Below, in pieces: positions 1 through 32,000 of a stretch of DNA of 32,000 nt (position 1 is the first letter of the stretch; every line of letters begins with the position of its first letter). Both the position numbers and the translations under genes were made by a program. Below the pieces are notes generated by a model. It was not told the origin of the DNA, did no database searches, and saw nothing but the letters and a program-made list of their open reading frames with translations. Source of the DNA: Psychrobacter sp. HD31 (GTDB taxonomy: Bacteria > Pseudomonadota > Gammaproteobacteria > Pseudomonadales > Moraxellaceae); the NCBI RefSeq assembly GCF_051097895.1, contig NZ_CP142525.1:1440001-1472000 (forward strand), read 5' to 3'.

Positions 1-140
1 ACAAATAATAGAACTGGAATTAAAACAAACAAGAGAAGACCAGAAACACGGTGTAGAATCGACGCCATTGCGATAGGCGACTTAGCGTTAACACTTAAAA
101 TCTGACCTACAGATAAATTAATCGGTCGTTTATTTTTCAT
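1..140 (-). CDS. sdhC: Succinate dehydrogenase cytochrome b556 subunit SdhC, N-terminal fragment (runs off window start)
   Basis: Reverse-strand ATG at 138-140 opens a frame that continues to position 1. Translation is MKNKRPINLSVGQILSVNAKSPIAMASILHRVSGLLLFVLIPVLLF. The RPxNL and ASILHRVSG motifs match the SdhC N-terminus. It is divergent from gltA, as in the classical gltA/sdhCDAB layout. Absent from the ORF track because it is truncated. Confidence 0.8.
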   Translation of the reverse strand, partial: MKNKRPINLSVGQILSVNAKSPIAMASILHRVSGLLLFVLIPVLLF

Positions 141-942
141 GGTGGATATCCTTATTTTATTAGGACATTCAGTCATATTCATTGAATCTGTAGCCGTCAA
201 TAATTAAAGGTAATCACAACACACCTAAAGATACTCACGACTAAGCCAAGACTATGGCTAAGAAATTATAGAAAAGTAACCACTTTTGTAGTTATTATTT
301 GAGTTACTGCTTATATAAATAATAAACCACAAAAGCCAAACAAGTAACCAGTTGATTAGCTGGCTTGTGCTATAAATTAAGCAAGTTAAATTAACAAATA
401 GCTAGCTAAAAAAAAATTACGGTAACATTATAGAATGACTATTAATAAAAAACAAATGAAATCCACAAAGAAATAATGAAAATGATGGCTTATAAGTCAC
501 TGTTTAATAGAACAATTCTCATTATCATGTAAAATTTAATTAACGATTATTTTTATCATTAAAAGCAATTTTTTTGTTATTTTCTTAATATAGAAAAATT
601 TTGTTACGATAGTATCACTAATAATCAGCATTAATTTACGTGACAATATAATAACTTTGTATTACATTAATAAGGTTGAAGGACAACCCCTTTAGCCCTT
701 TTTTTATAAAAAGAGCCAAATAAAAGGACCTGCGCAACCCCCTAAATGTGACTGCTTAGACAAAAAAGCAACTTACTTTTTAATTCATTTTTTGCGCTAA
801 TGTTAACACTTGTTAAAGATTATCAAACATAAAACCTTCAAATATTTTGATAGATAAAACAATTGTTTATAAATAAGATAGGTGAGGACTTATCCTATTT
901 TTCACATTCCACCCAATTTTTATAACAGCACGAGAGGACGTT

Positions 943-2220
943 ATGACAGAAAAAAATGCAAAACTATTGGTTGATGGCAAAGAATATGACTTGCCAATTA
1001 TGAACGGCACACTAGGTAACCCTGTTATTGATGTATCAGCAGTTCAGCAAGCAGGTTATTGGACATACGACCCAGGTTTTAAAGTAACCGCTCCTGTTGA
1101 ATCAGCCATCACGTTCATTGATGGTGGTAAAGGTCAATTATTACACCGTGGTTATCCAATCGATCAATTAGCAGACAATGCAGAATACCTAGAAGTTTGC
1201 TATGCCCTTTTATACGGTGACTTACCAAATAAAGCACAAAAAGATGAGTTTTATGCAAAAGTGCAAGCTCACACAGCCGTACATGACCAGTTACGCAAGT
1301 TTTTTGAAGGCTTTAGACGTGATGCCCACCCAATGGCGATTATGATTGGTGTTGTCGGCGCATTATCTGCTTTTTATCATAACGACTTAGATTTAAGTGA
1401 TGAAGAACACCGAGAAGTTACTTCTATCCGCCTAATTGCAAAAATGCCAACAATTGCAGCAATGTGCTACAAATATACCCGAGGCGAACCGTTCATGTAC
1501 CCTCGCAACTCATTTAGCTATGCAGAAAACTTCTTATATATGATGTTTGCGACACCAGCTGATCCTGAGTACAAAGTTAATCCTGTTTTAGTTAAAGCAA
1601 TGGATAAAATCTTTACATTGCATGCTGATCACGAACAAAACGCTTCAACGTCTACCGTTCGTTTAGCTGGTTCTACTGGTGCTAACCCATATGCTTGTAT
1701 TTCTGCTGGTATTGGTGCTCTTTGGGGTCCATCACACGGTGGCGCTAACGAAGCCGTACTAAACATGCTTGATGAAATTGGCACGGTTGAAAACGTTGCT
1801 GAGTTCATGGAAAAAGTTAAACGCCGTGAAGTTAAATTAATGGGCTTTGGTCACCGTGTATACAAAAACTTTGACCCGCGTGCTAAAGTTATGAAAGAAA
1901 CCTGTGATGAAGTACTTGATGCTTTAGGCATTGACGATCCACAGTTAGAACTGGCTATGGAACTAGAAAGAATTGCTCTAGAAGACCCATACTTTGTTGA
2001 GCGTAACCTATACCCTAACGTCGATTTCTATTCAGGCATTATCTTAAAAGCCATCGGCATTCCTACCTCTATGTTTACAGTAATGTTTGCGCTTGCACGT
2101 ACCTCTGGTTGGATTAGCCACTGGTTAGAAATGCACAGCTCACCATTTAAAATTGGTCGCCCTCGTCAGATGTACACAGGCGAAACAGAGCGTACTTTTG
2201 TTAAGTTAGAAGACCGTTAA
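943..2220 (+). CDS. gltA: Type II citrate synthase
   Basis: 425 aa. Full-length resemblance to hexameric Gram-negative citrate synthase, with motifs [20 protein letters not shown] and [21 protein letters not shown] Shine-Dalgarno lies just upstream of the ATG. Confidence 0.97.
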
Positions 2221-20024: not shown

Positions 20025-20954
20025 ATGCACATACTTATAACAGGCGGTTCAGGTTTTTTGGGGCAAGCGTTAACAAAAGAAGCTTGCAAACAAGATGATG
20101 TAACCATTACGTGGGTTTCTCGCAATACCAACACACCAAAATCTGAGGGCATTAGTGGCTTAAATATCATTGATTATGACGAGCTAAAAACCTGCCAAAC
20201 CCACTTTGATGTCATCATAAACCTTGCTGGTGCAGGCATTGCTGATAAACGTTGGTCTACGGCTCGTAAAAAGGTTTTATTTGACAGTCGGCTAAACCCT
20301 ACTCAAGCCATCTTAGATTATATTGCTCAAGCACATACCAAACCCAAACTATTTATCAGTGGTTCTGCCATTGGCTGGTATGGTGCTCAAATTGGTGATG
20401 AGATATTAACCGAACAAAGCCCTGCCCAAACTAATGACTTTGCTCATAGCCTATGCCAACAATGGGAAGATTTGGCAATCACTGCAAATCAATATAACGT
20501 GCCTGTTGCTATTATCCGTACTGGGGTGGTTATTAGCCCAACGGGTGGTATGATAACAAAACTTAAAACACCATTTAGCCTGGGTGTGGGTGGTAATTTG
20601 GGCAATGGCAAACAAATAATGAGCTGGATAAGTGTAAATGACTGGGTACGTGCCGTTTTGTTTATTATTAAGCAAAACGCTGCGCTTAATAAGCAAAGTA
20701 CCCAACTTACGCCTAAGCAAATATACAACCTCACTGCCCCAACTGCCGTTAACAATCGCGAGTTTACCAAAGCGGTTGGTAGTTGGCTTAACCGCCCAAC
20801 GGTACTCCATCAACCAGCCTTTGTGGTCAAGCAATTATTTGGCGAGATGGCAACCTTGCTAATTGATGGGCAAAATGTCTACCCACAAAACTTGTTGGAT
20901 ATGGGGTTTAAGTTTGAGCATGGCTCTGTTGGTGAGGCGTTAAACTCAGAATAG
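20025..20954 (+). CDS. TIGR01777/YfcH-family NAD-dependent epimerase/dehydratase-like protein (SDR39U1 type)
   Basis: 309 aa with an N-terminal Rossmann motif ILITGGSGFLGQAL and the C-terminal DUF1731-like region typical of YfcH. Confidence 0.8.
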   Translation: MHILITGGSGFLGQALTKEACKQDDVTITWVSRNTNTPKSEGISGLNIIDYDELKTCQTHFDVIINLAGAGIADKRWSTARKKVLFDSRLNPTQAILDYIAQAHTKPKLFISGSAIGWYGAQIGDEILTEQSPAQTNDFAHSLCQQWEDLAITANQYNVPVAIIRTGVVISPTGGMITKLKTPFSLGVGGNLGNGKQIMSWISVNDWVRAVLFIIKQNAALNKQSTQLTPKQIYNLTAPTAVNNREFTKAVGSWLNRPTVLHQPAFVVKQLFGEMATLLIDGQNVYPQNLLDMGFKFEHGSVGEALNSE

Positions 20955-22775: not shown

Positions 22776-23591
22776 TTAAGCAGTGTTGTCTTCTAACGCA
22801 AGTAAAAACCGCTTACGCCATAAGCCACCACCATATCCGCCTAAATCGCCACTTTTGCGGATAACACGGTGGCAAGGGATAATAATAGATATTTTGTTTT
22901 TACCATTGGCATTGGCAACCGCACGCATGGCTGTGGGCTTGCCCATTTTTTCCGCCTCATCTTGGTAACTAATGGTTTTGCCATAATCAATGGTTTGCAA
23001 AGTTTGCCAAACGGCTTGCTGAAACGGCGTACCAACGGCTTCCAATGGTATGTCAAATTCGACTCGCTTGCCTGCAAAATACTCATCCAACTGGTTTTGT
23101 AAAGTTTGAGCGGATAGATTTGAACTTGTATTGATAAACTCAAACTGGCATTTTTTATCTTTAATAATTTGATTTAACTCGGTTTCTAACATTTTACGCT
23201 CTAAAAACTCCAATAAACACAGCTTACCTTGTGCAAAAATGGCAAGCATATTACCAATTGGGGTATAAACGTATGAAAACTGGCAAATGTTTTGATATTG
23301 GTTTTTTGAGTTAAGGATAAAGTATGCACGTTTGATACGAACATAGGCACCAAGCGACATGCACGTGGTTTTCTCAAACGTTTTTTTAAATTGATTTAAT
23401 TGTTGCTCTGAGTCAATTGGATGCTCACGATAAGACTTTGGTGGATTTTCTTCTTTATCCAACCATTGAAGGTACGCCTGTAAGTCTGCATCTGTATTTT
23501 TTACAAAAAAATCAGCAAAAAAAGAGCTGACTGCGGTAAGTTGATTATCTACAGAAATCGGTAAAGCTGGTCTCACATCCGTGTTTATCAT
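22776..23591 (-). CDS. Methylated-DNA-[protein]-cysteine S-methyltransferase (Ogt/Ada C-domain) with a non-canonical N-terminal extension
   Basis: The C-terminal half carries the active-site IIIPCHRVI and TPFQQAVWQTL motifs. The N-terminal ~100 aa contain only a fragment resembling one AraC-type helix (FKKTFEKTTCMSLGAYVRIKRA) and no Cys4 zinc site. Confidence 0.85.
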   Translation of the reverse strand: MINTDVRPALPISVDNQLTAVSSFFADFFVKNTDADLQAYLQWLDKEENPPKSYREHPIDSEQQLNQFKKTFEKTTCMSLGAYVRIKRAYFILNSKNQYQNICQFSYVYTPIGNMLAIFAQGKLCLLEFLERKMLETELNQIIKDKKCQFEFINTSSNLSAQTLQNQLDEYFAGKRVEFDIPLEAVGTPFQQAVWQTLQTIDYGKTISYQDEAEKMGKPTAMRAVANANGKNKISIIIPCHRVIRKSGDLGGYGGGLWRKRFLLALEDNTA

Positions 23592-23638
23592 CTCTTACCC
23601 TCTTTATTTAATCGGTTATGGTTGAGTCCGTTGTATGG

Positions 23639-24142
23639 TTAGCCTTTCTCTCGTACAATCTTACGCAATAGCAGCAAATGCACTAAAATTAAAAAAATGC
23701 TTAACAAAAAGGTTTGCATTGGGATGCTCATGCCAAGTAGTGTCCATTCAATGGTAGCGCATTCGCCAGAACCACGAAACACCTCTTTAACCACATCAAA
23801 CATGGGCATGGTATCTACCCAATAATCAAGCCCTGGTCCACACGCCGGTGTTTGATCTGGTGGTAGATTTTGTATCCAGGTATGGCGTGCTGCAACAACC
23901 GCTGTCCACACAACGCCTGATAAACTACCAAGCCATAAAAATAGCCGAAACCCTTTATTTTTTGGGTTAAATAAGACAGCAAAAAAAGCAAACACACCCA
24001 TCACCATTATTCCAATACGCTGGAAGATGCATAATGGGCAAGGAAACAAGCCTAGCTCACGCTGTAAGTAAAAGAATGCAAAACTAATAGCAACGACTGC
24101 TGTTAGTAATAAAAATACGTTGATTAGTCGATAATTATTCAT
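23639..24142 (-). CDS. dsbB: Disulfide bond formation protein B
   Basis: 167 aa with 4 TM segments, CPLCIFQR (the first CxxC pair) and a second periplasmic loop containing Cys residues. Confidence 0.9.
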   Translation of the reverse strand: MNNYRLINVFLLLTAVVAISFAFFYLQRELGLFPCPLCIFQRIGIMVMGVFAFFAVLFNPKNKGFRLFLWLGSLSGVVWTAVVAARHTWIQNLPPDQTPACGPGLDYWVDTMPMFDVVKEVFRGSGECATIEWTLLGMSIPMQTFLLSIFLILVHLLLLRKIVREKG

Positions 24143-24305
24143 GTTTTGCTCTACTTTTGCATTAAAAACCTTGCGCTGTTTTTAAGCATTAGCCTTACTT
24201 TAATGAGTGTGATTTAACATCAAGTCAAATAAGATTTGTTGGCTTTAATAAATGCACAGGCTGGCTGCACATTGGCCATATCCTATTTATCTCGACTCTT
24301 AATTT

Positions 24306-25889
24306 TTACCTAAACTGCTTTACATACTCTTTAAAATCTTGGGTTTGCTCTGCTTCTAAATCTGCCTGTTGTAGGGCTGATTTTTCTGCCAACACCTCGT
24401 ATCTTGCTTGAGTATTTGGGCTAAGGGCATATTTTAATAAATGATCTTTGTGCTGATTGGCAAGCGTTTTTCCCAACTGTGCTGTGCTACCTAGGCGTTT
24501 GCTGTCGGCAATAATTTGCGCTGATAAGGTCAAATTAGGGTTACTAACCTTACCTTGCATAAGTGCCACGGCGGTTCGATAGTCATTACCGCCATGTTTT
24601 TCGTCAAACATTTCTGCCAATGGTAACATTTTTGCTAAGTGCTTTTGCATCCATGCTTGTAGGTTTTGCTCTTTCCCATTTACCAAAATATTGGTATTGG
24701 TGTCGCGCCCACCGTTAACAACTCGCTCAAGGTTTATGGCAAGCTCTTTATCTTCATCTGGCATTAACTCTGGCGAGTCATTGAGCAGGCAATACAACGC
24801 CAATATCTCTAAAAAGCAAGCACTCGATAAACGGATACCTACATCGCTATACGGATCAAGGTCAATTGCTCTAAACTCAACATAAGCAATCCCTCTATCT
24901 TCTAAAGCTTGTGTTGGTGTTTCACCACCTTTTGCAATTTGTTTTGGGCGGATTGGGCTGTAATATTCATTTTCAATCTGCAAAATATGGTCATTAATTT
25001 GTACCGGATTGCCCTCGCTGTCATCCACACCAATATCGGTAAAATCTTTAAACGGGGTATGAATGGCTTTACGCAAGCCTGCAATATATTCTGGCAAATT
25101 GTTATAGCGGATATCTAACCCATCTTGCACACTATTTGTGTAACCCAGTTTGCCCATACGCAATGAGGTAGAGTTTGGTTGGTAATAAGTATGCTGATTC
25201 AACTTTTTTAGGTTGTGTTCACGCCCTACCAAAAAACAAGGGCAAACACTAGGGCTCGCACCATAAAGGTATAATACCAAGCTGGTTAGGCGGTTAAAGT
25301 TACGGATTAGCCCTAAATATTTTTCATTTTTAAACTCAGCCAAACTGCGGTTTTCATTTTGCTGTTTGTGCCACTCACCAAACAAATCATCACCAAATGA
25401 CAAGTTGTAGTGCAAGCCCGCAATGGTTTGCATGCGCCTGCCATAACGTACGCCCAGCCCACTACGGTATAAGGTTTTAAGTTTACCAATGTTAGATGTG
25501 CCATAGTCTGCCAACGGTATGTCTTCATCTTCGCTAGATAACATACAAGGCATGGATAGTGGCCAAAGTAGCTCTTGATTTGACTTGCTATTTTCATCAT
25601 TGTCATCACTGATAGAGTGTTGAACCAGCACATGCAGCTCTCTTAACATGGCAAGTGCTTGTTTTGGCGACTCTTTTGGATCAGTAATTAGTTCAAGTAA
25701 ACTTTCTGAGTAGTCAGTGGTAATGTAAGGATGCGTTAATTTAGAGCCCAGTTTTTCTGGGTGCGGTGTTTGGGCAAGGTAGCCATCTTTTTGCATACGC
25801 AAGCCTTCTTTTTCTATGCCCCTAAGCATGCCTGTTAAATGCTGGCTGGTTAGCCAATTTGGCAAAGTAAACCCTGTTGTACTGTTCAT
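24306..25889 (-). CDS. gshA: Glutamate-cysteine ligase
   Basis: Full-length resemblance to proteobacterial GshA (GIEKEGLRM, ELITDP, YVEFRAIDLDP). The start is taken at MNSTTGF (25889), giving about 527 aa, rather than the ORF-track 25940. Confidence 0.92.
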   Translation of the reverse strand: MNSTTGFTLPNWLTSQHLTGMLRGIEKEGLRMQKDGYLAQTPHPEKLGSKLTHPYITTDYSESLLELITDPKESPKQALAMLRELHVLVQHSISDDNDENSKSNQELLWPLSMPCMLSSEDEDIPLADYGTSNIGKLKTLYRSGLGVRYGRRMQTIAGLHYNLSFGDDLFGEWHKQQNENRSLAEFKNEKYLGLIRNFNRLTSLVLYLYGASPSVCPCFLVGREHNLKKLNQHTYYQPNSTSLRMGKLGYTNSVQDGLDIRYNNLPEYIAGLRKAIHTPFKDFTDIGVDDSEGNPVQINDHILQIENEYYSPIRPKQIAKGGETPTQALEDRGIAYVEFRAIDLDPYSDVGIRLSSACFLEILALYCLLNDSPELMPDEDKELAINLERVVNGGRDTNTNILVNGKEQNLQAWMQKHLAKMLPLAEMFDEKHGGNDYRTAVALMQGKVSNPNLTLSAQIIADSKRLGSTAQLGKTLANQHKDHLLKYALSPNTQARYEVLAEKSALQQADLEAEQTQDFKEYVKQFR

Positions 25890-26083
25890 GTCTTTCTCTA
25901 TATTTTTATCAATAAATATTTTGCATAACTTTGCAAACACACTATAAATTGTATCCTATCAAACAATAAAATAACATGGAATATATAGACTATGCTTTTT
26001 TATTGCTTTTTGATTAATCACTTATCCTTTTTTATACTTATCATCTTTTTATATAGTCATTCAAATTATATAATCCCTTAAAA

Positions 26084-26108
26084 TAAAAAACCCACCAAAC
26101 GGCGGGTT
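26084..26108 (-). terminator. Rho-independent terminator after erpA
   Basis: The minus strand reads cccgcc-guuu-gguggg (one G-U pair), followed by UUUUUUAUUUU. Confidence 0.7.
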
Positions 26109-26124
26109 AATAAAACACGATGAT

Positions 26125-26457
26125 CTAAATAGAAAAAGAAGAACCACACCCACAGGTTGTCGTAGCGTTTGGGTTTTTAACCACAAAACGTGAGCCTTCT
26201 AGCCCTTCTACATAGTCGACTGTCGAACCTTGTAAATATTGATAACTTAACGAGTCTACCACCATGTTCACATCTTGGTTTTTAAAGGTGGCATCGTCTT
26301 CATTAACCTCATTTGCAAAGTCAAAACCATAAGAAAAACCAGAACAGCCACCACCTGTTACATAAACTCGTAACATTAAACTGGCATCGCCTTCATCTTC
26401 TCGTAAAACACGCAGTTTATTTGCTGCATTATCAGTTAAGGTCATGGTTGGTTGCAT
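26125..26457 (-). CDS. erpA: Iron-sulfur cluster insertion protein ErpA (A-type carrier)
   Basis: 110 aa with the GGGCSGFSY motif and the C-terminal CGCGSSFSI. Confidence 0.9.
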
Positions 26458-26654
26458 AGTTATTATCCTAATGGGTTGGTATTTTATGCATTATATATAA
26501 GATTGCTCTCATTATATCACAAGCAAAAACCAATATTTTTTAGCTAGATGATTAAATTTATTGATTAAGACTAATCAACCTAATGGACTCAAGCCCCCTT
26601 TTCATAGGGTATGACACCTTAAAAATAAAACTTTTAAAAAAAATTAAAAAAAAG

Positions 26655-26681
26655 TGTAAGAAATCACCCCCTAGCTCCGAC
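26655..26681 (+). promoter_or_regulatory. Candidate ECF-sigma-type promoter upstream of the peptide/MNIO locus
   Basis: TGTAAG-N17-CGAC sits in a GC-rich island within an otherwise A/T-run-rich spacer, about 95 nt upstream of the first precursor ATG. The architecture resembles ECF promoters of the xGTAAC-N17-CGAC type. This is pattern recognition only. Confidence 0.3.
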
Positions 26682-26775
26682 TAAGTTATAACAGCAAGAA
26701 AAACCTAAACATTTTTTCTGGTTGTTATGTTTTTAACCATCTATTTTTATTTATATATCAAACAAGGACTTAATC

Positions 26776-27015
26776 ATGAAAACCAAACACATCGTAAGTG
26801 GTCTTGCTATTTCTTCAATCATGGCAATTAGTGCATCAGCAAGTGCGGGTACGACCAACCCATTTTCTGCAAAATGTATGAGCAATGGTCAAGCAACCTC
26901 AACAGCTTGCAAAAAGGCTGATGCCAAATGTGGTGAAGGCAAATGTGGCGCAACCACCCACTCTAAAAAAGCTGACGGTAAATGTGGTGAAGGCAAGTGT
27001 GGTGGTGCTAAATAA
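26776..27015 (+). CDS. Secreted Cys-Gly-repeat RiPP precursor 1 (EGKCG-repeat, HvfA/bufferin-like; Sec signal peptide)
   Basis: 79 aa. The signal peptide ends in ASA|G. The mature part is GTTNPFSAKCMSNGQATSTAC-KKADAKCGEGKCG-ATTHS-KKADGKCGEGKCG-GAK. It has six Cys, four of them in KCGEGKCG modules. AAGGA lies upstream. Confidence 0.85.
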   Translation: MKTKHIVSGLAISSIMAISASASAGTTNPFSAKCMSNGQATSTACKKADAKCGEGKCGATTHSKKADGKCGEGKCGGAK

Positions 27016-27134
27016 CTTTTAATGCATTTTTTACAACCTCAACCTGACTATTAGCCTTGTGATTAATACGCTTGTACAGCATGGTTTTATAACACAAGGT
27101 TAATAGTAAGTTTTAATTTAATAGGGAATTTATT

Positions 27135-27413
27135 ATGAAATCAAATACGATTGTAAAAACTTTGGCCGTATCTTCTTTAATTACTTTAGGCGTTACAGCC
27201 TGTACGGGTAACCCATTTCAGGCAGATAGCATGGACAAAGGCTATGAAATGAAAAAAGCCGAGCACAAATGCGGTGAAGCAAAATGTGGCGCTGATAAAA
27301 AAGCGGATGGCAATTGTGGTGGCGACAAAAAAGCAGATCATAGCTGTGGTGCCGATAAAAAAGCCGACGGTAAATGTGGCGAAGGCAAATGCGGTGCTGA
27401 TAAAAAGAAATAA
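27135..27413 (+). CDS. Cys-Gly-repeat RiPP precursor 2 (paralogue, lipoprotein signal peptide)
   Basis: 92 aa with the lipobox VTAC (Cys23). The mature part begins CTGNPF. The core is HKCGEAKCG-ADKKADGNCG-GDKKADHSCG-ADKKADGKCGEGKCG-ADKKK. All six core Cys are followed by Gly. GGGAA lies upstream. Confidence 0.85.
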   Translation: MKSNTIVKTLAVSSLITLGVTACTGNPFQADSMDKGYEMKKAEHKCGEAKCGADKKADGNCGGDKKADHSCGADKKADGKCGEGKCGADKKK

Positions 27414-27460
27414 GTTTATACATTAACACGCATGTGATACCCATTAGATAAGGATAACTC

Positions 27461-28387
27461 ATGAATAATACAATTAGCGGTGCTGGTTTAGGGTTTCGTC
27501 GTGATTTGCTACAACCAATGCAATCTGCCGATTTATCTGCCATTGATTTTTTTGAAATCTCGCCAGAAAACTGGATAAACAGTGAAGGCAAACTTGGCGG
27601 TAATTACGAAGCAAGCTTAAAAGCCTACACCGAGCGTTTTGATTTTATTTGCCACGGCTTATCTTTATCTATTGGTAGTACCCGTTATTTAGATTTTGAC
27701 TTATTAAAACAAGTTAAAAACTTTATGCACACACACAATATTGGTATGTATACCGAGCACCTATCTTGGTGCAGTGATGAAAAGGGACACTTGTATGACT
27801 TATTGCCCATCCCTTGCACGGAGGAAGCCGTGCATTGGACAGCAAACCGTATTAAACAAGCTCAAGACTTTATGGGGCAACAAATCGGCTTTGAAAACGC
27901 CTCATACTATTATCAGCCCAAAATAAGCACCATGAGCGATGCTGCTTTTATATCCGACGTTTGTCACGAGGCAGACTGTTTGCTACATCTGGATATCAAC
28001 AACATTTATGTTAATAGCCAAAACTTTGGATTTAATCCACACACGTATTTACGTCAATTGCCACTAGAACGATCCTGCTATATACATGTTGCGGGGCATT
28101 TTATAGAAGAGGATGGGCTTATTGTCGATACCCATGGCAATGCCGTAATCGATAAAGTTTGGGATTTGTTAGTGGATGCCTACCAGCTAATTTACAAAAA
28201 AACTGGAAAATTACCTGCCCAAATACCAACCTGTTTAGAACGTGATTTTAATTTCCCAGAGTTACAAGAACTCATAGGCGAGGTTAACCACATTCACCAA
28301 CTACAGGCAGATGTTGGCAACCAATTAAACCAGCCACAAGATATCAAGCCACACAATACAAAGGGGAGATATGCAAATGCTAGCTAA
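27461..28387 (+). CDS. Multinuclear non-heme iron oxidase (MNIO, DUF692/UPF0276; MbnB/BufB/HvfB-like peptide maturase)
   Basis: 308 aa with the DUF692 landmark string GLGFRR, FFEISPENW, CHGLSLSIGS, YTEHLSW, GFENASYY, LHLDINNIYVNSQNFG and IHVAGH, which carries the TIM-barrel metal-ligand positions. Confidence 0.9.
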   Translation: MNNTISGAGLGFRRDLLQPMQSADLSAIDFFEISPENWINSEGKLGGNYEASLKAYTERFDFICHGLSLSIGSTRYLDFDLLKQVKNFMHTHNIGMYTEHLSWCSDEKGHLYDLLPIPCTEEAVHWTANRIKQAQDFMGQQIGFENASYYYQPKISTMSDAAFISDVCHEADCLLHLDINNIYVNSQNFGFNPHTYLRQLPLERSCYIHVAGHFIEEDGLIVDTHGNAVIDKVWDLLVDAYQLIYKKTGKLPAQIPTCLERDFNFPELQELIGEVNHIHQLQADVGNQLNQPQDIKPHNTKGRYANAS

Positions 28388-29201
28388 CAAAGCAACCCCA
28401 AAAATAACGGCAGACATCAAAATGCCAAGCCAGTTGCAGGCATTTCAGGCTGATTTTGGTGACTATTTGCGTAGCCAAATGCACGAGGATGGCAACAGCA
28501 TCCCCAAACGGGTGGGGCAACTTTATCAGGAGTTAATTTTTAACAACCTAAAAGGGTTTATTAATCAATGCTTCCCTGTTTGCCAAACCATAATGACAGC
28601 AAAGCAATGGCAAGCATTGTCTTTATACTTTTTTCAAAATGCAGACTTACATAGCCCCTACTTTACCGAGGTAAACAAACACTTTGTAGACTTTATGTAC
28701 ACATTGTCTGATACACAAAAACAAGTCTTATCTGTGCCTGACTACATGGCAGATTTAGCGCATTATGAATGGGTGGAGCTAAATTTAGATATACAACCCA
28801 ACAACCCTAAAAACACCGCATTGTTTGCAAACTATGCGCTTAACCAAAATATGCAAAACTTGCATTACCTGTGGGCAGTTCATCAAATTGATAATACTAA
28901 CCCACCCACAGAACCGACAGACACTTTTTTGTTGGTGTATCGCACACCAACGCATTCGGTTGAGTTTATGGAAACAAATGCACTCACCCACTTGCTGATT
29001 GAGTATATGACACAAACAGCCAGTCAGGCTGAAAACACAAACCATGCCAACAGCAATAACGAGCCACTATTTAATGATGGGCGTGCTTTGTTAACCGCTT
29101 TTTTTAACTCTATAGAAACCGAGGTTGAACCACACATATTAGATTTTGGTGAAGCGTTATTGGCACAACTTATCAGCGAACACCTTATTATTGAATGTTG
29201 A
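28371..29201 (+). CDS. DUF2063-family partner protein of the MNIO (MbnC/BufC/HvfC-like substrate-recruiting subunit)
   Basis: 276 aa. The N-terminal region (LQAFQADFGDYLRS...VGQLYQELIFNNLKGFINQCFPV...W) is typical of DUF2063. It overlaps the MNIO stop by 17 nt. The second ATG at 28377 has better GGGGAG spacing and may be the true start. Confidence 0.8.
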   Translation: MQMLANKATPKITADIKMPSQLQAFQADFGDYLRSQMHEDGNSIPKRVGQLYQELIFNNLKGFINQCFPVCQTIMTAKQWQALSLYFFQNADLHSPYFTEVNKHFVDFMYTLSDTQKQVLSVPDYMADLAHYEWVELNLDIQPNNPKNTALFANYALNQNMQNLHYLWAVHQIDNTNPPTEPTDTFLLVYRTPTHSVEFMETNALTHLLIEYMTQTASQAENTNHANSNNEPLFNDGRALLTAFFNSIETEVEPHILDFGEALLAQLISEHLIIEC

Positions 29202-29289
29202 GCAATTTAAGCAAATAACATAACGGCTAGCACTTTTTAGATTCATCCATATAAACTCATCCATTTTTTATTATTTTTAGGAGATTGTT

Positions 29290-29937
29290 ATGAGCATCAT
29301 CACATCAGTCGCAACACTCTACAATACGGTTATAGACAAGCTGAAGTCATTAGATTTTTTAGTATTAGTGGCTTTAAGGCTATATCTTGCGCCTATATTC
29401 ATTATTGCTGGGTTAAACAAGCTTATGCATTTTGAAGACATGGTGGCATGGTTTGGTAATCCAGACTGGGGGCTAGGATTGCCAGTCCCTGCTGTTATGG
29501 TCAGCTTAACCATCATTGCCGAGCTCATTGGTGGTGTTGCCTTACTGGCTGGTTGGTTTACACGCATATTTGCGTTTATGCTATCTATCACCATGTTGGT
29601 TGCTGCCAAAACCGTACATTGGCAAAATGGCTGGTTTGCTATCACCCCAACTGACCCAACCACCAGCATTGCCAGCTTATTTGCAAAACTTGGTTTTGGC
29701 TCTGCACATGACAGCATACAAAACTCAATTGAAACTGGCGCACGCTTAGACAAGGCACGTGAACTGTTACAAACCCATGGTAACTATGACTGGCTAACCG
29801 AAACAGGCAATTTTGTTGTGCTAAACAATGGGGTTGAGTTTGCCATTACTTATCTTATAATGTTGTTAGTACTGGTTGTTTATGGTGCAGGCAAATGGTT
29901 GAGTCTTGATTTTTGGTTCTCTCCAAAACATAAGTAA
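29290..29937 (+). CDS. DoxX-family integral membrane protein with an inserted soluble segment (BufD/HvfX-like)
   Basis: 215 aa with DoxX-like TM helices (LRLYLAPIFIIAGLNKL, IAELIGGVALLAGWFTR) and a ~70-aa non-hydrophobic insertion before the last TM. GGAGA lies upstream. Confidence 0.8.
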   Translation: MSIITSVATLYNTVIDKLKSLDFLVLVALRLYLAPIFIIAGLNKLMHFEDMVAWFGNPDWGLGLPVPAVMVSLTIIAELIGGVALLAGWFTRIFAFMLSITMLVAAKTVHWQNGWFAITPTDPTTSIASLFAKLGFGSAHDSIQNSIETGARLDKARELLQTHGNYDWLTETGNFVVLNNGVEFAITYLIMLLVLVVYGAGKWLSLDFWFSPKHK

Positions 29938-29965
29938 TGCAAAACTAAAAAGGTTAAACAACGCT

Positions 29966-30577
29966 ATGTCGGCAACTTCTGATACAAAAGCTAAAATTGA
30001 TGATAAATTTATTGCAGATGTATATGAGCAGATGTTGGCTTTTGCAATATCTCAATTTAAAGATGAACATCAAGCTCAAGATGCTGTTCAAGAGGCATTG
30101 ACCGCTGCATTAAATCATTCAGACAAGTTTAATGGCAAAGCAACATTTAAGACTTGGGTGTTCTCCATTTTAAAAAATAAGATTATTGATGAAATAAGAA
30201 GCAATAACCGCTACGTCAATATATCGAGTATGCAATCAGATGATGGAAATACATCTGATGAAGAGTTTATCAGCTTGCTGTTTGATGATGCAGGATTTTG
30301 GTACAAAAACGGTAAACCATCTGCTTTTGATAACAGCTGGTGTGAGCCCGAAACTCAAGCACACGGTGAGGAGTTTTGGCAGGTGTTGGAGTTTTGTTTA
30401 AATAAATTACCTGCGGAGCAATCTCGAGTATTTATCATGCGAGAATACATAGAGTTAGAAACAAATGAAATTTGTGCAGAGGTTGGTATCAATAGCAATA
30501 AATTTTATGTACTCATGCACCGAGCAAGGTTAAGATTACAACAATGTTTGTCTATTCGCTGGTTTGCTGAACAATAA
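29966..30577 (+). CDS. ECF (group IV) sigma-70 family RNA polymerase sigma factor
   Basis: Region 2 is DAVQEALTAALNHSDKFNGKATFKTWVFSILKNKIIDEIR and region 4 is LPAEQSRVFIMREYIELETNEICAEVGINSNKFYVLMHRARLRLQ. The start is taken at MSATSD (29966), because the ORF-track start at 29906 would overlap the DoxX gene. Confidence 0.88.
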   Translation: MSATSDTKAKIDDKFIADVYEQMLAFAISQFKDEHQAQDAVQEALTAALNHSDKFNGKATFKTWVFSILKNKIIDEIRSNNRYVNISSMQSDDGNTSDEEFISLLFDDAGFWYKNGKPSAFDNSWCEPETQAHGEEFWQVLEFCLNKLPAEQSRVFIMREYIELETNEICAEVGINSNKFYVLMHRARLRLQQCLSIRWFAEQ

Positions 30578-30631
30578 GCAAATACCGTTTTAATTTATAT
30601 CATCAAACCACAAAGATCAGGTAGAAAAACC

Positions 30632-30877
30632 ATGGAAACTCAAACACCACGCAACCACTCATCAAGCAATCCAATGCACAAAATGATGCTAAGTTGCTAT
30701 AAGGCAACTGAACTGGTTAGCTTATCTTATGAACGCAAACTGTCAAGAGGTGAGCAGTTTAAACTTTACACGCATACAATGATGTGTAAGGGGTGTCGTC
30801 AGTTTTTAAAAAACACTGAAATACTTGATAATATGTTACAAGCGCATAAAGAATATGAAAAGAACGCCAAAAAATAA
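30632..30877 (+). CDS. Short zf-HC2 (ZAS-type) anti-sigma factor, no transmembrane segment
   Basis: 81 aa, immediately after the ECF sigma gene. It contains HTMMCKGC (HxxxCxxC) plus an upstream Cys (LSCYKA) and has no hydrophobic helix. The true start may be one of the internal Met codons (30674-30686). Confidence 0.7.
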   Translation: METQTPRNHSSSNPMHKMMLSCYKATELVSLSYERKLSRGEQFKLYTHTMMCKGCRQFLKNTEILDNMLQAHKEYEKNAKK

Positions 30878-30906
30878 TAACCTTATTTTATGTTGCTGTT
30901 AATATT

Positions 30907-30932
30907 AAGGTCTGTTGATTTCAACAGACCTT
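30907..30932 (+). terminator. Rho-independent terminator closing the RiPP/sigma operon
   Basis: aaggtctgttga (30907-30918) pairs perfectly with tcaacagacctt (30921-30932). It is followed by tttaattta, a weak T-tract. Confidence 0.7.
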
Positions 30933-31060
30933 TAATTTATTTGAGGAACCAATAACAGCTGAATGACATTGCCTTCGCAGTACTAATCTTGTAAATGGTT
31001 TATTTTAGTTATGATAAACTACCACCTTATTAAAAAACATGACAATTTAGCTCAAACACC

Positions 31061-32000
31061 ATGATTCAATTTCAAAACATATCCGTCCGCCGAGATGGTC
31101 GCGTATTATTCCAAGATGCCAGTTTTCAGTTGCATCCTAAACAAAAAATCGGCTTAACAGGAAACAACGGCACGGGTAAATCCAGCTTATTTGCCGTTTT
31201 ACTTGGCTCACTTGCTGTTGATACGGGTGAAGTGTCGATACCGTCTAATTGGAAAATGGCACACATGGCTCAAGAAGTTGAAAGTGTGGATATGACGGCT
31301 ATTGACTATGTACTGGCAGGTGATGACGAATGGTATGCACTGAATGCCAAACTTACTGACCAATCGAGTTTGGCAGAATCTGAAATCGCCCATTTACATC
31401 AAAGATTTGATGAAATTGATGGCTACCGTACCCCAACCAAAGCGGCACAAATCATGGCAGGTTTAGGGTTTGCAACGCCTCAACATTCGCTAAAAGTTGG
31501 TGAGTTTTCGGGCGGCTGGCGAATGCGGTTGAACCTTGCACGCACCTTGATGTGTCGAGCAGATGTCATGCTACTTGATGAACCGACCAACCACTTGGAC
31601 TTAGATGCGATTTTATGGCTAGAAGACTGGATATCTGCGTTTGATGGCATGGTACTGCTCATCTCGCATGACCAAAGTTTTTTAGATGCTTGCGTTAGCC
31701 ATATTCTACATATCGAGCATCAAGGCATTACCCTATATACAGGAAACTACAGCCAATTTGTACGTATCCGTAGTGAACGCCTTGCTCAGCAACAACAAGC
31801 TTATGAAAAACAACAAGAAACAAAAGCCCATCTTGAAGACTATATTCGTCGTTTCCGTGCCAAAGCCACCAAAGCCAAACAAGCACAAAGTCGCATCAAA
31901 CAACTGGAACGCATGACCGAACTGTCTGCCGTGGTCGCAGACAATCCGTTTTCGTTTAAATTTTATCCGCCCAGTCATATGGCTTCACCACTGGTTGTGA
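31061..32000 (+). CDS. ABC-F family ATPase (YheS/Uup-like), N-terminal part, continues beyond window
   Basis: My own translation from the ATG at 31061 stays open to the window end. It reads MIQFQNISVRRDG...GNNGTGKSS (Walker A)...FSGGWRMRLNLA (signature)...MLLDEPTNHLD (Walker B)...HDQSFLD, then the charged ABC-F linker (RFRAKATKAKQAQSRIKQLE). Missing from the ORF track because there is no stop codon. Confidence 0.9.
   Translation, partial: MIQFQNISVRRDGRVLFQDASFQLHPKQKIGLTGNNGTGKSSLFAVLLGSLAVDTGEVSIPSNWKMAHMAQEVESVDMTAIDYVLAGDDEWYALNAKLTDQSSLAESEIAHLHQRFDEIDGYRTPTKAAQIMAGLGFATPQHSLKVGEFSGGWRMRLNLARTLMCRADVMLLDEPTNHLDLDAILWLEDWISAFDGMVLLISHDQSFLDACVSHILHIEHQGITLYTGNYSQFVRIRSERLAQQQQAYEKQQETKAHLEDYIRRFRAKATKAKQAQSRIKQLERMTELSAVVADNPFSFKFYPPSHMASPLVV

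Follow-up and report, generated by a model that had tools for sequence, protein, structure and literature searches.

A probable sigmaE-autoregulated hvf-type (oxazolin/'captophorin') operon in a Moraxellaceae bacterium

Copper-binding peptide systems built around a multinuclear non-heme iron oxidase (MNIO) and a PME1 partner are already well described: more than 24,000 MNIO-PME1 loci have been catalogued, and three members of the EGKCG class, oxazolin, fontiphorin and gonophorin, have been characterised. The enzyme pairs HvfBC, FonBC and NgoBC turn the cysteines of EGKCG motifs into 5-thiooxazoles, giving products that bind Cu(I) (PMC11252979, PMC13097082, bioRxiv 10.64898/2026.07.17.739211). 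The homologous operon of Neisseria meningitidis, NMB2140-2145, encodes DoxX, three hypothetical proteins, rpoE and the ZAS anti-sigma factor MseR; it is polycistronic and autoregulated by sigmaE, a basal sigma/anti-sigma transcript is present without induction, and oxidants do not induce sigmaE in meningococci (PMC2893595). In Haemophilus influenzae the doxX/hvf operon is induced by HOCl along with msrAB, and this induction requires RpoE2 (PMC7907618).

We analysed a stretch of 32,000 nucleotides from Psychrobacter sp. HD31 (the window) and established by computation which genes make up a locus that joins this known family, the protein families they belong to, their ligand motifs and synteny, and a conserved promoter motif (Table 1). 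Family calls were made with curated NCBIfam models at their own cut-offs (release 20) and with Pfam. The initial annotation had described seven tightly packed same-strand genes closed by a terminator, and an ORF check recovered all seven on the + strand at the expected places, spanning 26776-30877, with the terminator behind them. As had also been noted, the interval 26776-30877 is free of peptidase, transporter and additional tailoring genes, and the three longest antisense ORFs of the locus had no Pfam match. All ten Moraxellaceae loci that we retrieved (L001-L010) share this gene set and its order (precursor-hvfB-hvfC-hvfX-sigma-anti-sigma), so the arrangement is not due to chance. Local variations are the pair of precursors, one of Sec type and one a lipoprotein, and the position of DoxX after HvfC.

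Table 1 Features of the Psychrobacter hvf-type locus (positions in the window)
Feature	Position	Strand	Details
Candidate sigmaE-type (ECF) operon promoter	26656-26685	+	-35 GTAAGAAAT (26656-26664), 13-nt spacer, -10 CGACTAAG (26678-26685)
hvfA-family precursor 1	26776-27015	+	79 aa
Imperfect inverted repeat/hairpin	27041-27113	+	15-bp stem; lies in the gap from precursor 1 to precursor 2
hvfA-family precursor 2	27135-27413	+	92 aa
hvfB, MNIO	27461-28387	+	308 aa
hvfC, DUF2063 protein	28371-29201	+	276 aa
hvfX, DoxX	29290-29937	+	215 aa
Sigma-70-like promoter	29834-29861	+	TTGAGT-16-TATAAT, within the hvfX 3' end
ECF sigma factor	29966-30577	+	ORF open from TTG 29906
Anti-sigma factor	30632-30877	+	81 aa
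Intrinsic terminator	30907-30932	+	11-bp stem with 5 G-C pairs, 4-nt loop, T-rich tail

The proposed DUF692/MNIO enzyme matched the NCBIfam HvfB model (NF003818; 375.8 bits, cut-off 360) and Pfam MbnB_TglH_ChrH (PF05114; E 7e-89), and aligned to PDB 3BWW (E 6e-66). Its metal-ligand motifs are complete (H65, H100, E145, D178/N181, H209/H213, D223/H225 and E260), and the site-3 ligands match N175, D242 and H244 of HvfB. We thus assign hvfB as a multinuclear non-heme iron oxidase with predicted activity on CG cysteines. Identity as BufB (228 bits, cut-off 310) or MbnB (33.7 bits, cut-off 325) was rejected, and the models for ChrH and ApyH failed for the locus as well. The next protein, placed in DUF2063 from the outset, passed the HvfC model (NF050145; 185.7 bits, cut-off 142), carries the Pfam domains DUF2063 and NGO1945_C, and matched PDB 3DEE (NGO1945; E 4e-8); on these models it is an RRE-containing partner protein of the PME1 type. 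The 17-nt overlap of its gene with hvfB, previously reported, holds for ATG 28371 and shortens to 11 nt for ATG 28377; GGAG stands just 5' of the hvfC start, and the overlap is not conserved among relatives. HvfX scored 212.7 bits (NF050144; cut-off 80) and E 1.5e-20 to Pfam DoxX, which types it as a DoxX-family membrane protein, and it is 57-66% identical across L001-L010.

Both precursors passed the domain model KCGExKCG_twice (NF050137; cut-off 19.5) with 38.8 and 35.6 bits, respectively, and both fall far under the HvfA equivalog cut-off, at about 36 versus 95 bits (35.9 for precursor 1). With HvfB, HvfC, HvfX and HvfA-family domain models all above their cut-offs, the early view that this is an EGKCG-class metallophore locus with MNIO, DUF2063 and DoxX was supported, and by these models the locus is a well-conserved, ordinary member of the characterised Hvf/oxazolin ('captophorin') family. 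The expectation that automated annotation would call every gene hypothetical or DUF failed, because NCBIfam release 20 names HvfA-family, HvfB, HvfC and HvfX proteins.

Precursor 1 starts with a signal peptide of Sec/SPase I type (ASASA|G) and contains six cysteines. Four of these (C52, C57, C70 and C75) are CG cysteines within two KKADxKCGEGKCG repeats; the N-terminal C34 and C45 are not followed by Gly. A count of six core cysteines for each precursor had been given, which is right as a count, but only four of those in precursor 1 sit in a modifiable motif. In precursor 2 the signal peptide is of lipoprotein type (lipobox V-T-A-C23), and the seven cysteines are the lipobox Cys23 and the CG cysteines C46, C51, C61, C71, C81 and C86, in the relaxed motifs HKCG, AKCG, GNCG, HSCG, GKCG and GKCG. 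Sec-type homologues occupy the position equivalent to precursor 1 in the Psychrobacter loci L001 and L004, where the lipobox of the second precursor is also kept (LSGC and LGGC, respectively), and Moraxella operons have a single precursor with a lipobox (LTAC, LIAC or TVAC). Behind the signal peptide stands a conserved NPFxAxxMxxGYxN motif, present in precursor 2 too. It had been suggested that the signal peptide also serves as the RiPP leader, which is probably not the case: HvfA without its signal peptide is still completely modified, and the stretch past the signal peptide is important for its recognition (PMC11252979).

The initial annotation listed the sigma/anti-sigma pair and drew no inference from it. 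The sigma factor matched TIGR02943 (215 bits, cut-off 162) and contains the Pfam domains Sigma70_r2 and Sigma70_r4_2; its gene keeps its place in L001-L010, with 45-58% identity. Its start is likely to be ATG 29966, because in the relatives the sigma frame opens only a few codons ahead of the matching start. The assignment of the anti-sigma factor to zf-HC2 stood in part: the zf-HC2 match (17.5 bits) lies under the Pfam cut-off of 22.2, but the NCBIfam antisigmaE model was passed (NF052368; 58.1 bits, cut-off 50). The protein has the zinc motif C22-x25-H48-x3-C52-x2-C55, in which the cysteines and the histidine are spaced as in MseR (C4/H30/C34/C37) and RsrA (C11/H37/C41/C44), and no hydrophobic segment. 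Translation could also begin at 30683 or 30686, and relatives start 3-7 residues before the first cysteine. Models and motif spacing together type the pair as sigmaE/MseR (RpoE2/HrsE) with a cytoplasmic ZAS anti-sigma factor. Among 80 related loci, a homologous sigma gene was adjacent in 30 and a homologous anti-sigma gene in 21. As in Neisseria, the Psychrobacter peptide operon is joined to its own sigma/anti-sigma switch.

The candidate operon promoter matches the Neisseria sigmaE consensus (-35 GTMAGBWTT, spacer 12-13 nt, -10 CGTCTAAH; PMC2893595) imperfectly, at 7 of 9 positions in the -35 box and 6 of 8 in the -10 box with the right spacing. An A/T-rich UP-like tract (~26620-26653) lies upstream, and transcription is predicted to begin near A26690/26691. 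The window contains a single GTAAG-N15-19-CGNCTAA, where 0.05 would be expected. With a looser motif, each of the loci L001-L010 has one + strand match, just 5' of its first precursor; the invariant alignment columns cluster in TGTAAGA and CG-CTAA, and the spacer varies. The presence of this promoter type in all ten relatives suggests that the operon is probably autoregulated and responsive to oxidative or thiol stress. Since a pair of the same type drives the homologous Neisseria and Haemophilus operons, induction by such stress, not by metal alone, would be expected; the signal is uncertain because oxidants did not induce meningococcal sigmaE. Neither msrAB nor another predicted regulon member was found within the window.

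Taken together, the locus is likely to be a sigmaE-autoregulated hvf-type operon, with chemistry, copper binding, export and inducing signal that we infer from homologues. The sigma factor would be silenced by the ZAS anti-sigma factor and set free once the Zn-Cys site of the latter is disrupted by oxidative or thiol-reactive stress, or possibly by metal stress. Transcripts begun at the sigmaE-type promoter would run on into both regulator genes, sigma and anti-sigma, and close a positive feedback loop. Of the two ribosomal precursors, one would be made with a Sec/SPase I and the other with a lipoprotein signal peptide. A cytoplasmic HvfB-HvfC complex, with a mixed-valent diiron cofactor in HvfB, would recognise them, probably via the NPFxAxxMxxGYxN stretch and not the signal peptide itself, and convert the cysteines of C-terminal x-C-G motifs to 5-thiooxazoles at four sites in precursor 1 and six in precursor 2 (including the relaxed GNCG and HSCG, as predicted sites). 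Sec would then export the modified peptides, one as a soluble periplasmic peptide and one with a lipid anchor, and both would bind Cu(I). HvfX is a co-conserved membrane protein.

Modification to oxazolone/thioamide pairs, as in methanobactin, was the first assignment for HvfA (PMC11252979), and the wording is still in NCBIfam model descriptions; the original authors and an independent group have reassigned HvfA to 5-thiooxazole, all characterised MNIO-PME1 systems make 5-thiooxazoles, and the Psychrobacter HvfB is far nearer to BufB than to MbnB, which makes this alternative very unlikely. It is also unlikely that one of the small ORFs, most plausibly the lipoprotein, is a non-substrate of HvfBC and serves as an unmodified Cys-rich, metallothionein-like envelope lipoprotein. 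Unmodified HvfA does bind several Cu(I) ions, precursor 2 has non-canonical motifs, and neither precursor reaches the HvfA equivalog cut-off. Against this, precursor 2 has the conserved NPFxAxxMxxGYxN motif and four canonical KCG sites, and the lipoprotein form is the sole precursor in the Moraxella operon.

The sigma/anti-sigma genes could form an independent neighbouring unit, with the hvf genes driven by a housekeeping or metal-responsive promoter. Fifty of the 80 retrieved EGKCG loci are without a sigma gene within reach, the MNIO landscape paper omits sigma genes from oxazolin gene clusters, and the sigma-70-like promoter lies just 5' of the sigma gene; we nevertheless consider this very unlikely given the unbroken synteny of the ten Moraxellaceae loci (gene order differs in Rugosibacter and Bacteroidota), the conserved ECF-type promoter 5' of the first precursor, the demonstrated co-transcription and autoregulation in Neisseria, and the lack of a + strand terminator between hvfX and the sigma gene. 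More serious, if still a minority possibility, is that the same machinery serves oxidant defence (HOCl, H2O2) or envelope thiol/redox balance and not copper sequestration, with thiooxazole-rich peptides and DoxX acting sacrificially or as a redox buffer, controlled by sigmaE. The redox-type ZAS regulator, the HOCl response of the H. influenzae operon, the ties of DoxX homologues to thiol and oxidative stress, and literature linking MNIO-PME1 clusters to both metals and oxidative stress argue for it. However, every characterised product binds Cu(I), bufferins give copper protection, and antioxidant activity of a 5-thiooxazole peptide is so far only hypothetical; copper itself provokes oxidative stress, so the two roles are compatible.

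Two further elements accompany the copper-binding operon that we favour. The hairpin between the precursor genes (21-nt arms, 86% complementary; fold -26.5 kcal/mol, z = -2.6) has no conserved equivalent in L001 or L004 and may perhaps act in mRNA stability or attenuation. The sigma-70-like promoter in hvfX matches 10 of 12 consensus positions, in a region with fewer such matches than shuffled sequence, and we note it only as a lead, to a site from which the sigma/anti-sigma pair might be transcribed at a basal level.

All seven forward-strand open reading frames described in the initial annotation were recovered between 26776 and 30877 (table). The 17-nt overlap that it gave for hvfB and hvfC applies if hvfC begins at ATG 28371, and shrinks to 11 nt with ATG 28377; the sequence GGAG lies immediately 5' of the hvfC start. 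We found no further plausible genes inside the locus, and the three longest antisense open reading frames (27193-27591, 28785-29045 and 29319-29753), for which Pfam returned no match, were rejected as genes. Rfam, searched over 25900-31200 with a permissive threshold, yielded just two sub-threshold chance matches, and we therefore conclude that the locus holds no known riboswitch or sRNA. The flanking genes are housekeeping genes. Those upstream (ogt, dsbB, gshA and erpA) relate to thiol, redox and Fe-S functions; this is probably coincidental synteny, and the flanks differ in relatives.

Features of the hvf locus and its flanks, in window coordinates
Feature	Position	Strand	Remark
Precursor 1, Cys-Gly-rich peptide	26776-27015	+	
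Precursor 2, Cys-Gly-rich peptide	27135-27413	+	
DUF692/MNIO protein (hvfB)	27461-28387	+	
DUF2063 protein (hvfC)	28371-29201	+	
DoxX protein (hvfX)	29290-29937	+	
ECF sigma	open from TTG 29906, end 30577	+	
81-aa protein with H-x3-C-x2-C (anti-sigma)	30632-30877	+	
Terminator	30907-30932		11-bp stem, 3' of anti-sigma
ogt, dsbB, gshA (glutamate-cysteine ligase), erpA	22776-26457	-	upstream flank
ABC-F ATPase	from 31062		downstream flank

Profile searches against Pfam placed the protein encoded at 27461-28387 in the DUF692/MNIO family of multinuclear non-heme iron oxidases (MbnB_TglH_ChrH, E = 7e-89), its partner encoded at 28371-29201 in DUF2063 with an NGO1945_C domain, and the hvfX product in DoxX. 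For these proteins the NCBIfam models are more specific. The MNIO passed the HvfB equivalog NF003818 (375.8 bits; cut-off 360) and failed the models for BufB (228 bits; cut-off 310), ApyH (68 bits; cut-off 400), ChrH (56 bits; cut-off 600) and MbnB (TIGR04159; 33.7 bits; cut-off 325). The adjacent partner passed NF050145 HvfC (185.7 bits; cut-off 142), and the DoxX protein of the cluster passed NF050144 HvfX (212.7 bits; cut-off 80). HvfB aligns with the di-iron structure 3BWW (E = 6e-66) and keeps all of the metal-ligand residues (H65, H100, E145, D178/N181, H209/H213, D223/H225 and E260) within the motifs CH65GLS, EH100LSW, FE145NAS, LD178INN181, H209VAGH213, D223TH225 and LE260RDF. The site-3 ligands N175, D242 and H244 are essential in characterised HvfB, and their counterparts here fall within conserved NNIY and DTHG motifs. 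The initial annotation had read the region as an EGKCG-class MNIO locus and made this reading depend on profile searches placing both proteins in these families; as they did, its core interpretation stands. The finding is real and that interpretation essentially right.

Both precursors carry repeated (E)GKCG motifs and pass the HvfA-family domain model NF050137 KCGExKCG_twice (38.8 bits for precursor 1 and 35.6 bits for precursor 2; cut-off 19.5), and both fall short of the HvfA equivalog NF050188 (35.9 and 35.3 bits; cut-off 95). Judged by these scores, they are members of the HvfA family and not orthologues of HvfA. Neither has a match in Pfam, and they are therefore not DUF2282 proteins. 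On inspection, each begins with a Sec-type signal peptide in place of a classical RiPP leader, a feature kept in relatives: in precursor 1 MKTKH is followed by a hydrophobic stretch and ASASA|G, and the lipobox V-T-A-C23 of precursor 2 satisfies the PROSITE-type rule. The same pairing of a first precursor with a signal of the SPase I type and a second with a lipobox is common to the window and two other Psychrobacter loci (L001 and L004), with LSGC and LGGC in the relatives at the position of VTAC, and Moraxella has the lipoprotein form only. The motif NPFxAxxMxxGYxN follows just after the signal peptide in all precursors and is partly degenerate in Moraxella. We infer that HvfC probably recognises this motif rather than the signal peptide, because Haemophilus influenzae HvfA is still fully modified without its signal peptide, and its optimal processing needs the N-terminal region (PMC11252979). 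The lipoprotein precursor has relaxed N-C-G and S-C-G sites. Precursor 1 has two additional N-terminal cysteines, C34 and C45 (26875-26910), that are absent in its Psychrobacter homologues and resemble the disulfide-forming C38 and C43 of H. influenzae HvfA. In the gap that separates the precursor genes we observed a hairpin (27041-27113; 15-bp stem, 21-nt arms 86% complementary, folding z = -2.6). Given a z score of modest significance and no conserved equivalent in the Psychrobacter loci L001 and L004, we do not count it among the functional elements; it may shift the expression of one precursor relative to the other or be a product of chance.

Among the closest characterised counterparts is hvfXABC of nontypeable H. 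influenzae (oxazolin; NTHI1440-1444), whose four families are the same as those found here and all pass curated models, the precursors by way of the HvfA-family domain. HvfA has three AEGKCGEGKCG repeats, whose six cysteines are all modified by HvfB and HvfC; the peptide binds Cu(I) and is exported via a Sec signal peptide (PMC11252979). The modification was first named oxazolone/thioamide and was reassigned to 5-thiooxazole by the same laboratory and others. Both organisms pair an RpoE2-type ECF sigma factor with a small zinc-binding anti-sigma (ZAS) protein, and here this pair would presumably control the locus. In Haemophilus the DoxX gene comes first, whereas here it follows hvfC; there a single precursor carries the three repeats, whereas the two precursors here have either two repeats or scattered CG sites, one of the pair being a lipoprotein. 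Unlike H. influenzae HvfA, both precursors here also score below the HvfA equivalog cut-off. Finally, rpoE2-hrsE is unlinked to hvf and adjoins msrAB in Haemophilus, whereas the sigma and anti-sigma genes are part of the locus here; no msrAB gene was found within the window.

Two other copper-related systems share the enzyme superfamily, and neither accounts for the locus. Bufferins (BufA1/DUF2282 and BufA2 with BufB, BufC and DoxX, in gig operons) have the same type of partner protein, and the locus may resemble them in thiooxazole chemistry, Sec-dependent export and a role in copper stress. Tandem precursor genes are noted in bufferin (Buf1/Buf2) clusters, 16% of Buf2 bufferins have lipoprotein signal peptides, and some bufferin operons carry ECF sigma genes (PMC12452194). 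The anti-sigma associated with Buf1, however, is the membrane protein NrsF, whereas here it is a cytoplasmic ZAS protein, and we rejected a Buf1/Buf2 identity on the lack of DUF2282 in the precursors and the failed BufB model. Methanobactin synthesis (MbnA, MbnB and MbnC) likewise employs an MNIO and a partner that turn cysteines of a ribosomal peptide into copper ligands, the product being an oxazolone/thioamide. The locus differs in being without MbnA, MbnC, a leader peptide and an exporter; given the low MbnB score and the absence of any MbnA- or MbnC-like open reading frame in 26000-31000, identity with MbnABC was rejected too.

The initial annotation had correctly listed a sigma/anti-sigma pair and missed its meaning as a pair of the sigmaE/MseR kind. 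The sigma factor has Sigma70_r2 and r4_2 domains (Pfam) and passes TIGR02943 (215 bits; cut-off 162); its matches in the PDB are generic ECF sigma structures only. The anti-sigma passes the NCBIfam model NF052368 antisigmaE (58.1 bits; cut-off 50) and is under the cut-off for Pfam zf-HC2 (17.5 bits; cut-off 22.2). It is small and soluble, no hydrophobic segment being found in it, and has an H-x3-C-x2-C motif with a cysteine 26 residues before the histidine; this spacing (C22-x25-H48-x3-C52-x2-C55) is that of RsrA and of MseR, the small cytoplasmic ZAS anti-sigma of Neisseria meningitidis (C4, H30, C34 and C37; PMC2893595). Its true start may be 30683 or 30686, since the anti-sigma proteins of relatives start 3-7 residues before the first cysteine, although the Shine-Dalgarno sequence of 30632 is the better one. 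Family model, motif spacing and promoter together suggest that the pair is orthologous to that of Neisseria. A sigma-70-like site (TTGAGT-16-TATAAT, 29834-29861), agreeing with the consensus at 10/12 positions, falls within the 3'-terminal part of hvfX, ~105 nt 5' of the ATG of the sigma gene, and could, as a lead only, supply basal expression of the pair as in Neisseria. The gap between hvfX and the sigma gene is often much longer in relatives, reaching ~330 nt in the Moraxellaceae loci L008 and L010.

The Neisseria sigmaE consensus consists of a -35 box GTMAGBWTT, a spacer of 12-13 nt and a -10 box CGTCTAAH, preceded by an A/T-rich UP element (PMC2893595). A candidate promoter of this type, GTAAGAAAT-N13-CGACTAAG, lies ahead of the operon at 26656-26685, 91 nt before the ATG of precursor 1 and directly 3' of a long A/T tract, and its boxes match the consensus at 7/9 and 6/8 positions. 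The pattern GTAAG-N15-19-CGNCTAA occurs once in the 32 kb on both strands (0.05 expected). A looser form of the motif is found once on the forward strand of each of ten Moraxellaceae loci (L001-L010), in every case a short distance 5' of the first precursor gene; in the alignment the TGTAAGA and CG-CTAA columns are invariant and the spacer sequence is free. The single occurrence of so rare a motif and its conservation in all ten loci are good comparative evidence that 26656-26685 is a sigmaE-type promoter of the operon, which would hence be autoregulated as in Neisseria. Such a promoter also explains why the initial annotation began the locus at 26655. One further match in the loose search, at 20266-20295, was rejected as a second promoter copy: it lies inside the coding open reading frame 20025-20954 and fails the stricter pattern.

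Among species-representative genomes the best match to HvfB came from Psychrobacter pygoscelis (73%), followed by Moraxella species (65-70%). The order precursor-hvfB-hvfC-hvfX-sigma-anti-sigma was kept in 10/10 Moraxellaceae loci; in Rugosibacter and several Bacteroidota the sigma and anti-sigma genes are instead located upstream. Of 80 loci, at least 30 had a homologous sigma factor within reach and at least 21 a homologous anti-sigma; with many of the contigs being short, these counts are lower bounds. The same combination of DoxX, precursor, MNIO, DUF2063, sigmaE and downstream ZAS anti-sigma in one same-strand cluster is found in the rpoE operon of N. meningitidis and N. gonorrhoeae (NMB2140-NMB2145 = NGO1948-NGO1943, the 'gonophorin' ngo cluster). 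In N. meningitidis these genes (DoxX, three hypothetical proteins, rpoE and MseR) form a single operon autoregulated by sigmaE (PMC2893595) from a promoter before the first gene, the consensus of which is matched here, and the NgoABC product is a Cu-binding 5-thiooxazole peptide (PMC13097082). The DoxX gene, however, is first in Neisseria and fifth here, and the Neisseria operon has six genes with one precursor rather than seven with two. Identity is modest: HvfC matches NGO1945 (3DEE) at just E = 4e-8, in the N-terminal domain.

By analogy with the characterised homologues, HvfB and HvfC would convert x-C-G cysteines to 5-thiooxazoles in the cytoplasm, and both modified peptides would then be exported by Sec, one remaining soluble in the periplasm and the other becoming lipidated. 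Both would be expected to bind Cu(I); conversion to 5-thiooxazole and Cu(I) binding have been demonstrated for the Hvf, Fon and Ngo systems only (PMC11252979, PMC13097082). Transcription would be driven by sigmaE once oxidative, thiol or metal stress frees it from its ZAS anti-sigma. The main rival to a copper role is that the locus serves oxidant defence rather than copper sequestration. In H. influenzae HOCl induces the doxX (hvf) operon solely through RpoE2, an ECF sigma factor held by the 67-aa ZAS anti-sigma HrsE (PMC7907618). A further reading takes the soluble periplasmic and lipid-anchored thiooxazole peptides, the latter with Thr at +2 and hence probably sorted to the outer membrane, as a conserved division of labour in the Psychrobacter-like clade, a two-compartment buffer or relay for Cu(I), with the relaxed N-C-G and S-C-G sites of the lipoprotein extending the substrate range of HvfB-type enzymes; taken as a whole we consider it improbable. 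To our knowledge, the literature consulted describes no characterised lipidated captophorins of the EGKCG type and no characterised dual-precursor operons of this kind.

The locus is one more member of the known Hvf/oxazolin family, now routinely annotatable, and leaves the current understanding of that family unchanged. A 2026 study, in which fontiphorin, oxazolin and gonophorin were characterised and the name captophorins was given to the products, found more than 24,000 loci with an MNIO and a DUF2063/RRE partner (PME1), in about half of the reference genomes of Pseudomonadota (PMC13097082); the Buf_EGKCG/oxazolin profile collects ~2,000 precursors (PMC12452194). DoxX after hvfC, the Sec-plus-lipoprotein pair, the relaxed sites and the downstream sigma/anti-sigma genes are all within the known range of the family. 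The practical value lies in annotation and regulon prediction. The locus provides a Moraxellaceae example in which hvf genes, a sigmaE-type factor and a ZAS anti-sigma are fused into one operon, and the clearly conserved promoter motif TGTAAGA-N16-17-CG(A/T)CTAA could serve to predict sigmaE regulons in Moraxella and Psychrobacter, among them those of the pathogens M. bovis and M. bovoculi. With its relaxed x-C-G sites, the conserved Sec-type and lipoprotein pair lends itself to testing how tolerant HvfBC is of different substrates and what effect localisation has.

Several smaller features were seen along the way. In Moraxella loci (4020-5759 in L002, 4004-5755 in L006 and likewise L007-L010) the lipoprotein precursor and hvfB are separated by two extra genes, which lie 3' of the same sigmaE-type promoter and have no counterpart in the window or in Psychrobacter. 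They encode a 438-aa pyridine-nucleotide-disulfide oxidoreductase (Pyr_redox_2 and Pyr_redox_dim) and a 129-aa lipoprotein with a rhodanese domain, which suggests a sulfur- or thiol-handling accessory module of that clade. A GGGTATGACA block lies upstream of the A/T tract at 26607-26616 (TATGAC at -46 relative to the -35 box) and recurs at -36 in most loci of the M. lacunata group (~3262-3273 in L006). With differing distances to the -35 box and no counterpart in Psychrobacter, it was set aside as a functional element, and its sharing with the M. lacunata group may be due to chance. The first 1,000 nt of the window (1-1000) have an unusually low G+C content of 0.29, compared with ~0.39 over the remainder. 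The intergenic region between the divergent erpA and hvf genes contains a perfect palindrome, TTGATTA-AGAC-TAATCAA (26561-26578), ~80 nt 5' of the -35 box, which could be a transcription-factor site for erpA or hvf.
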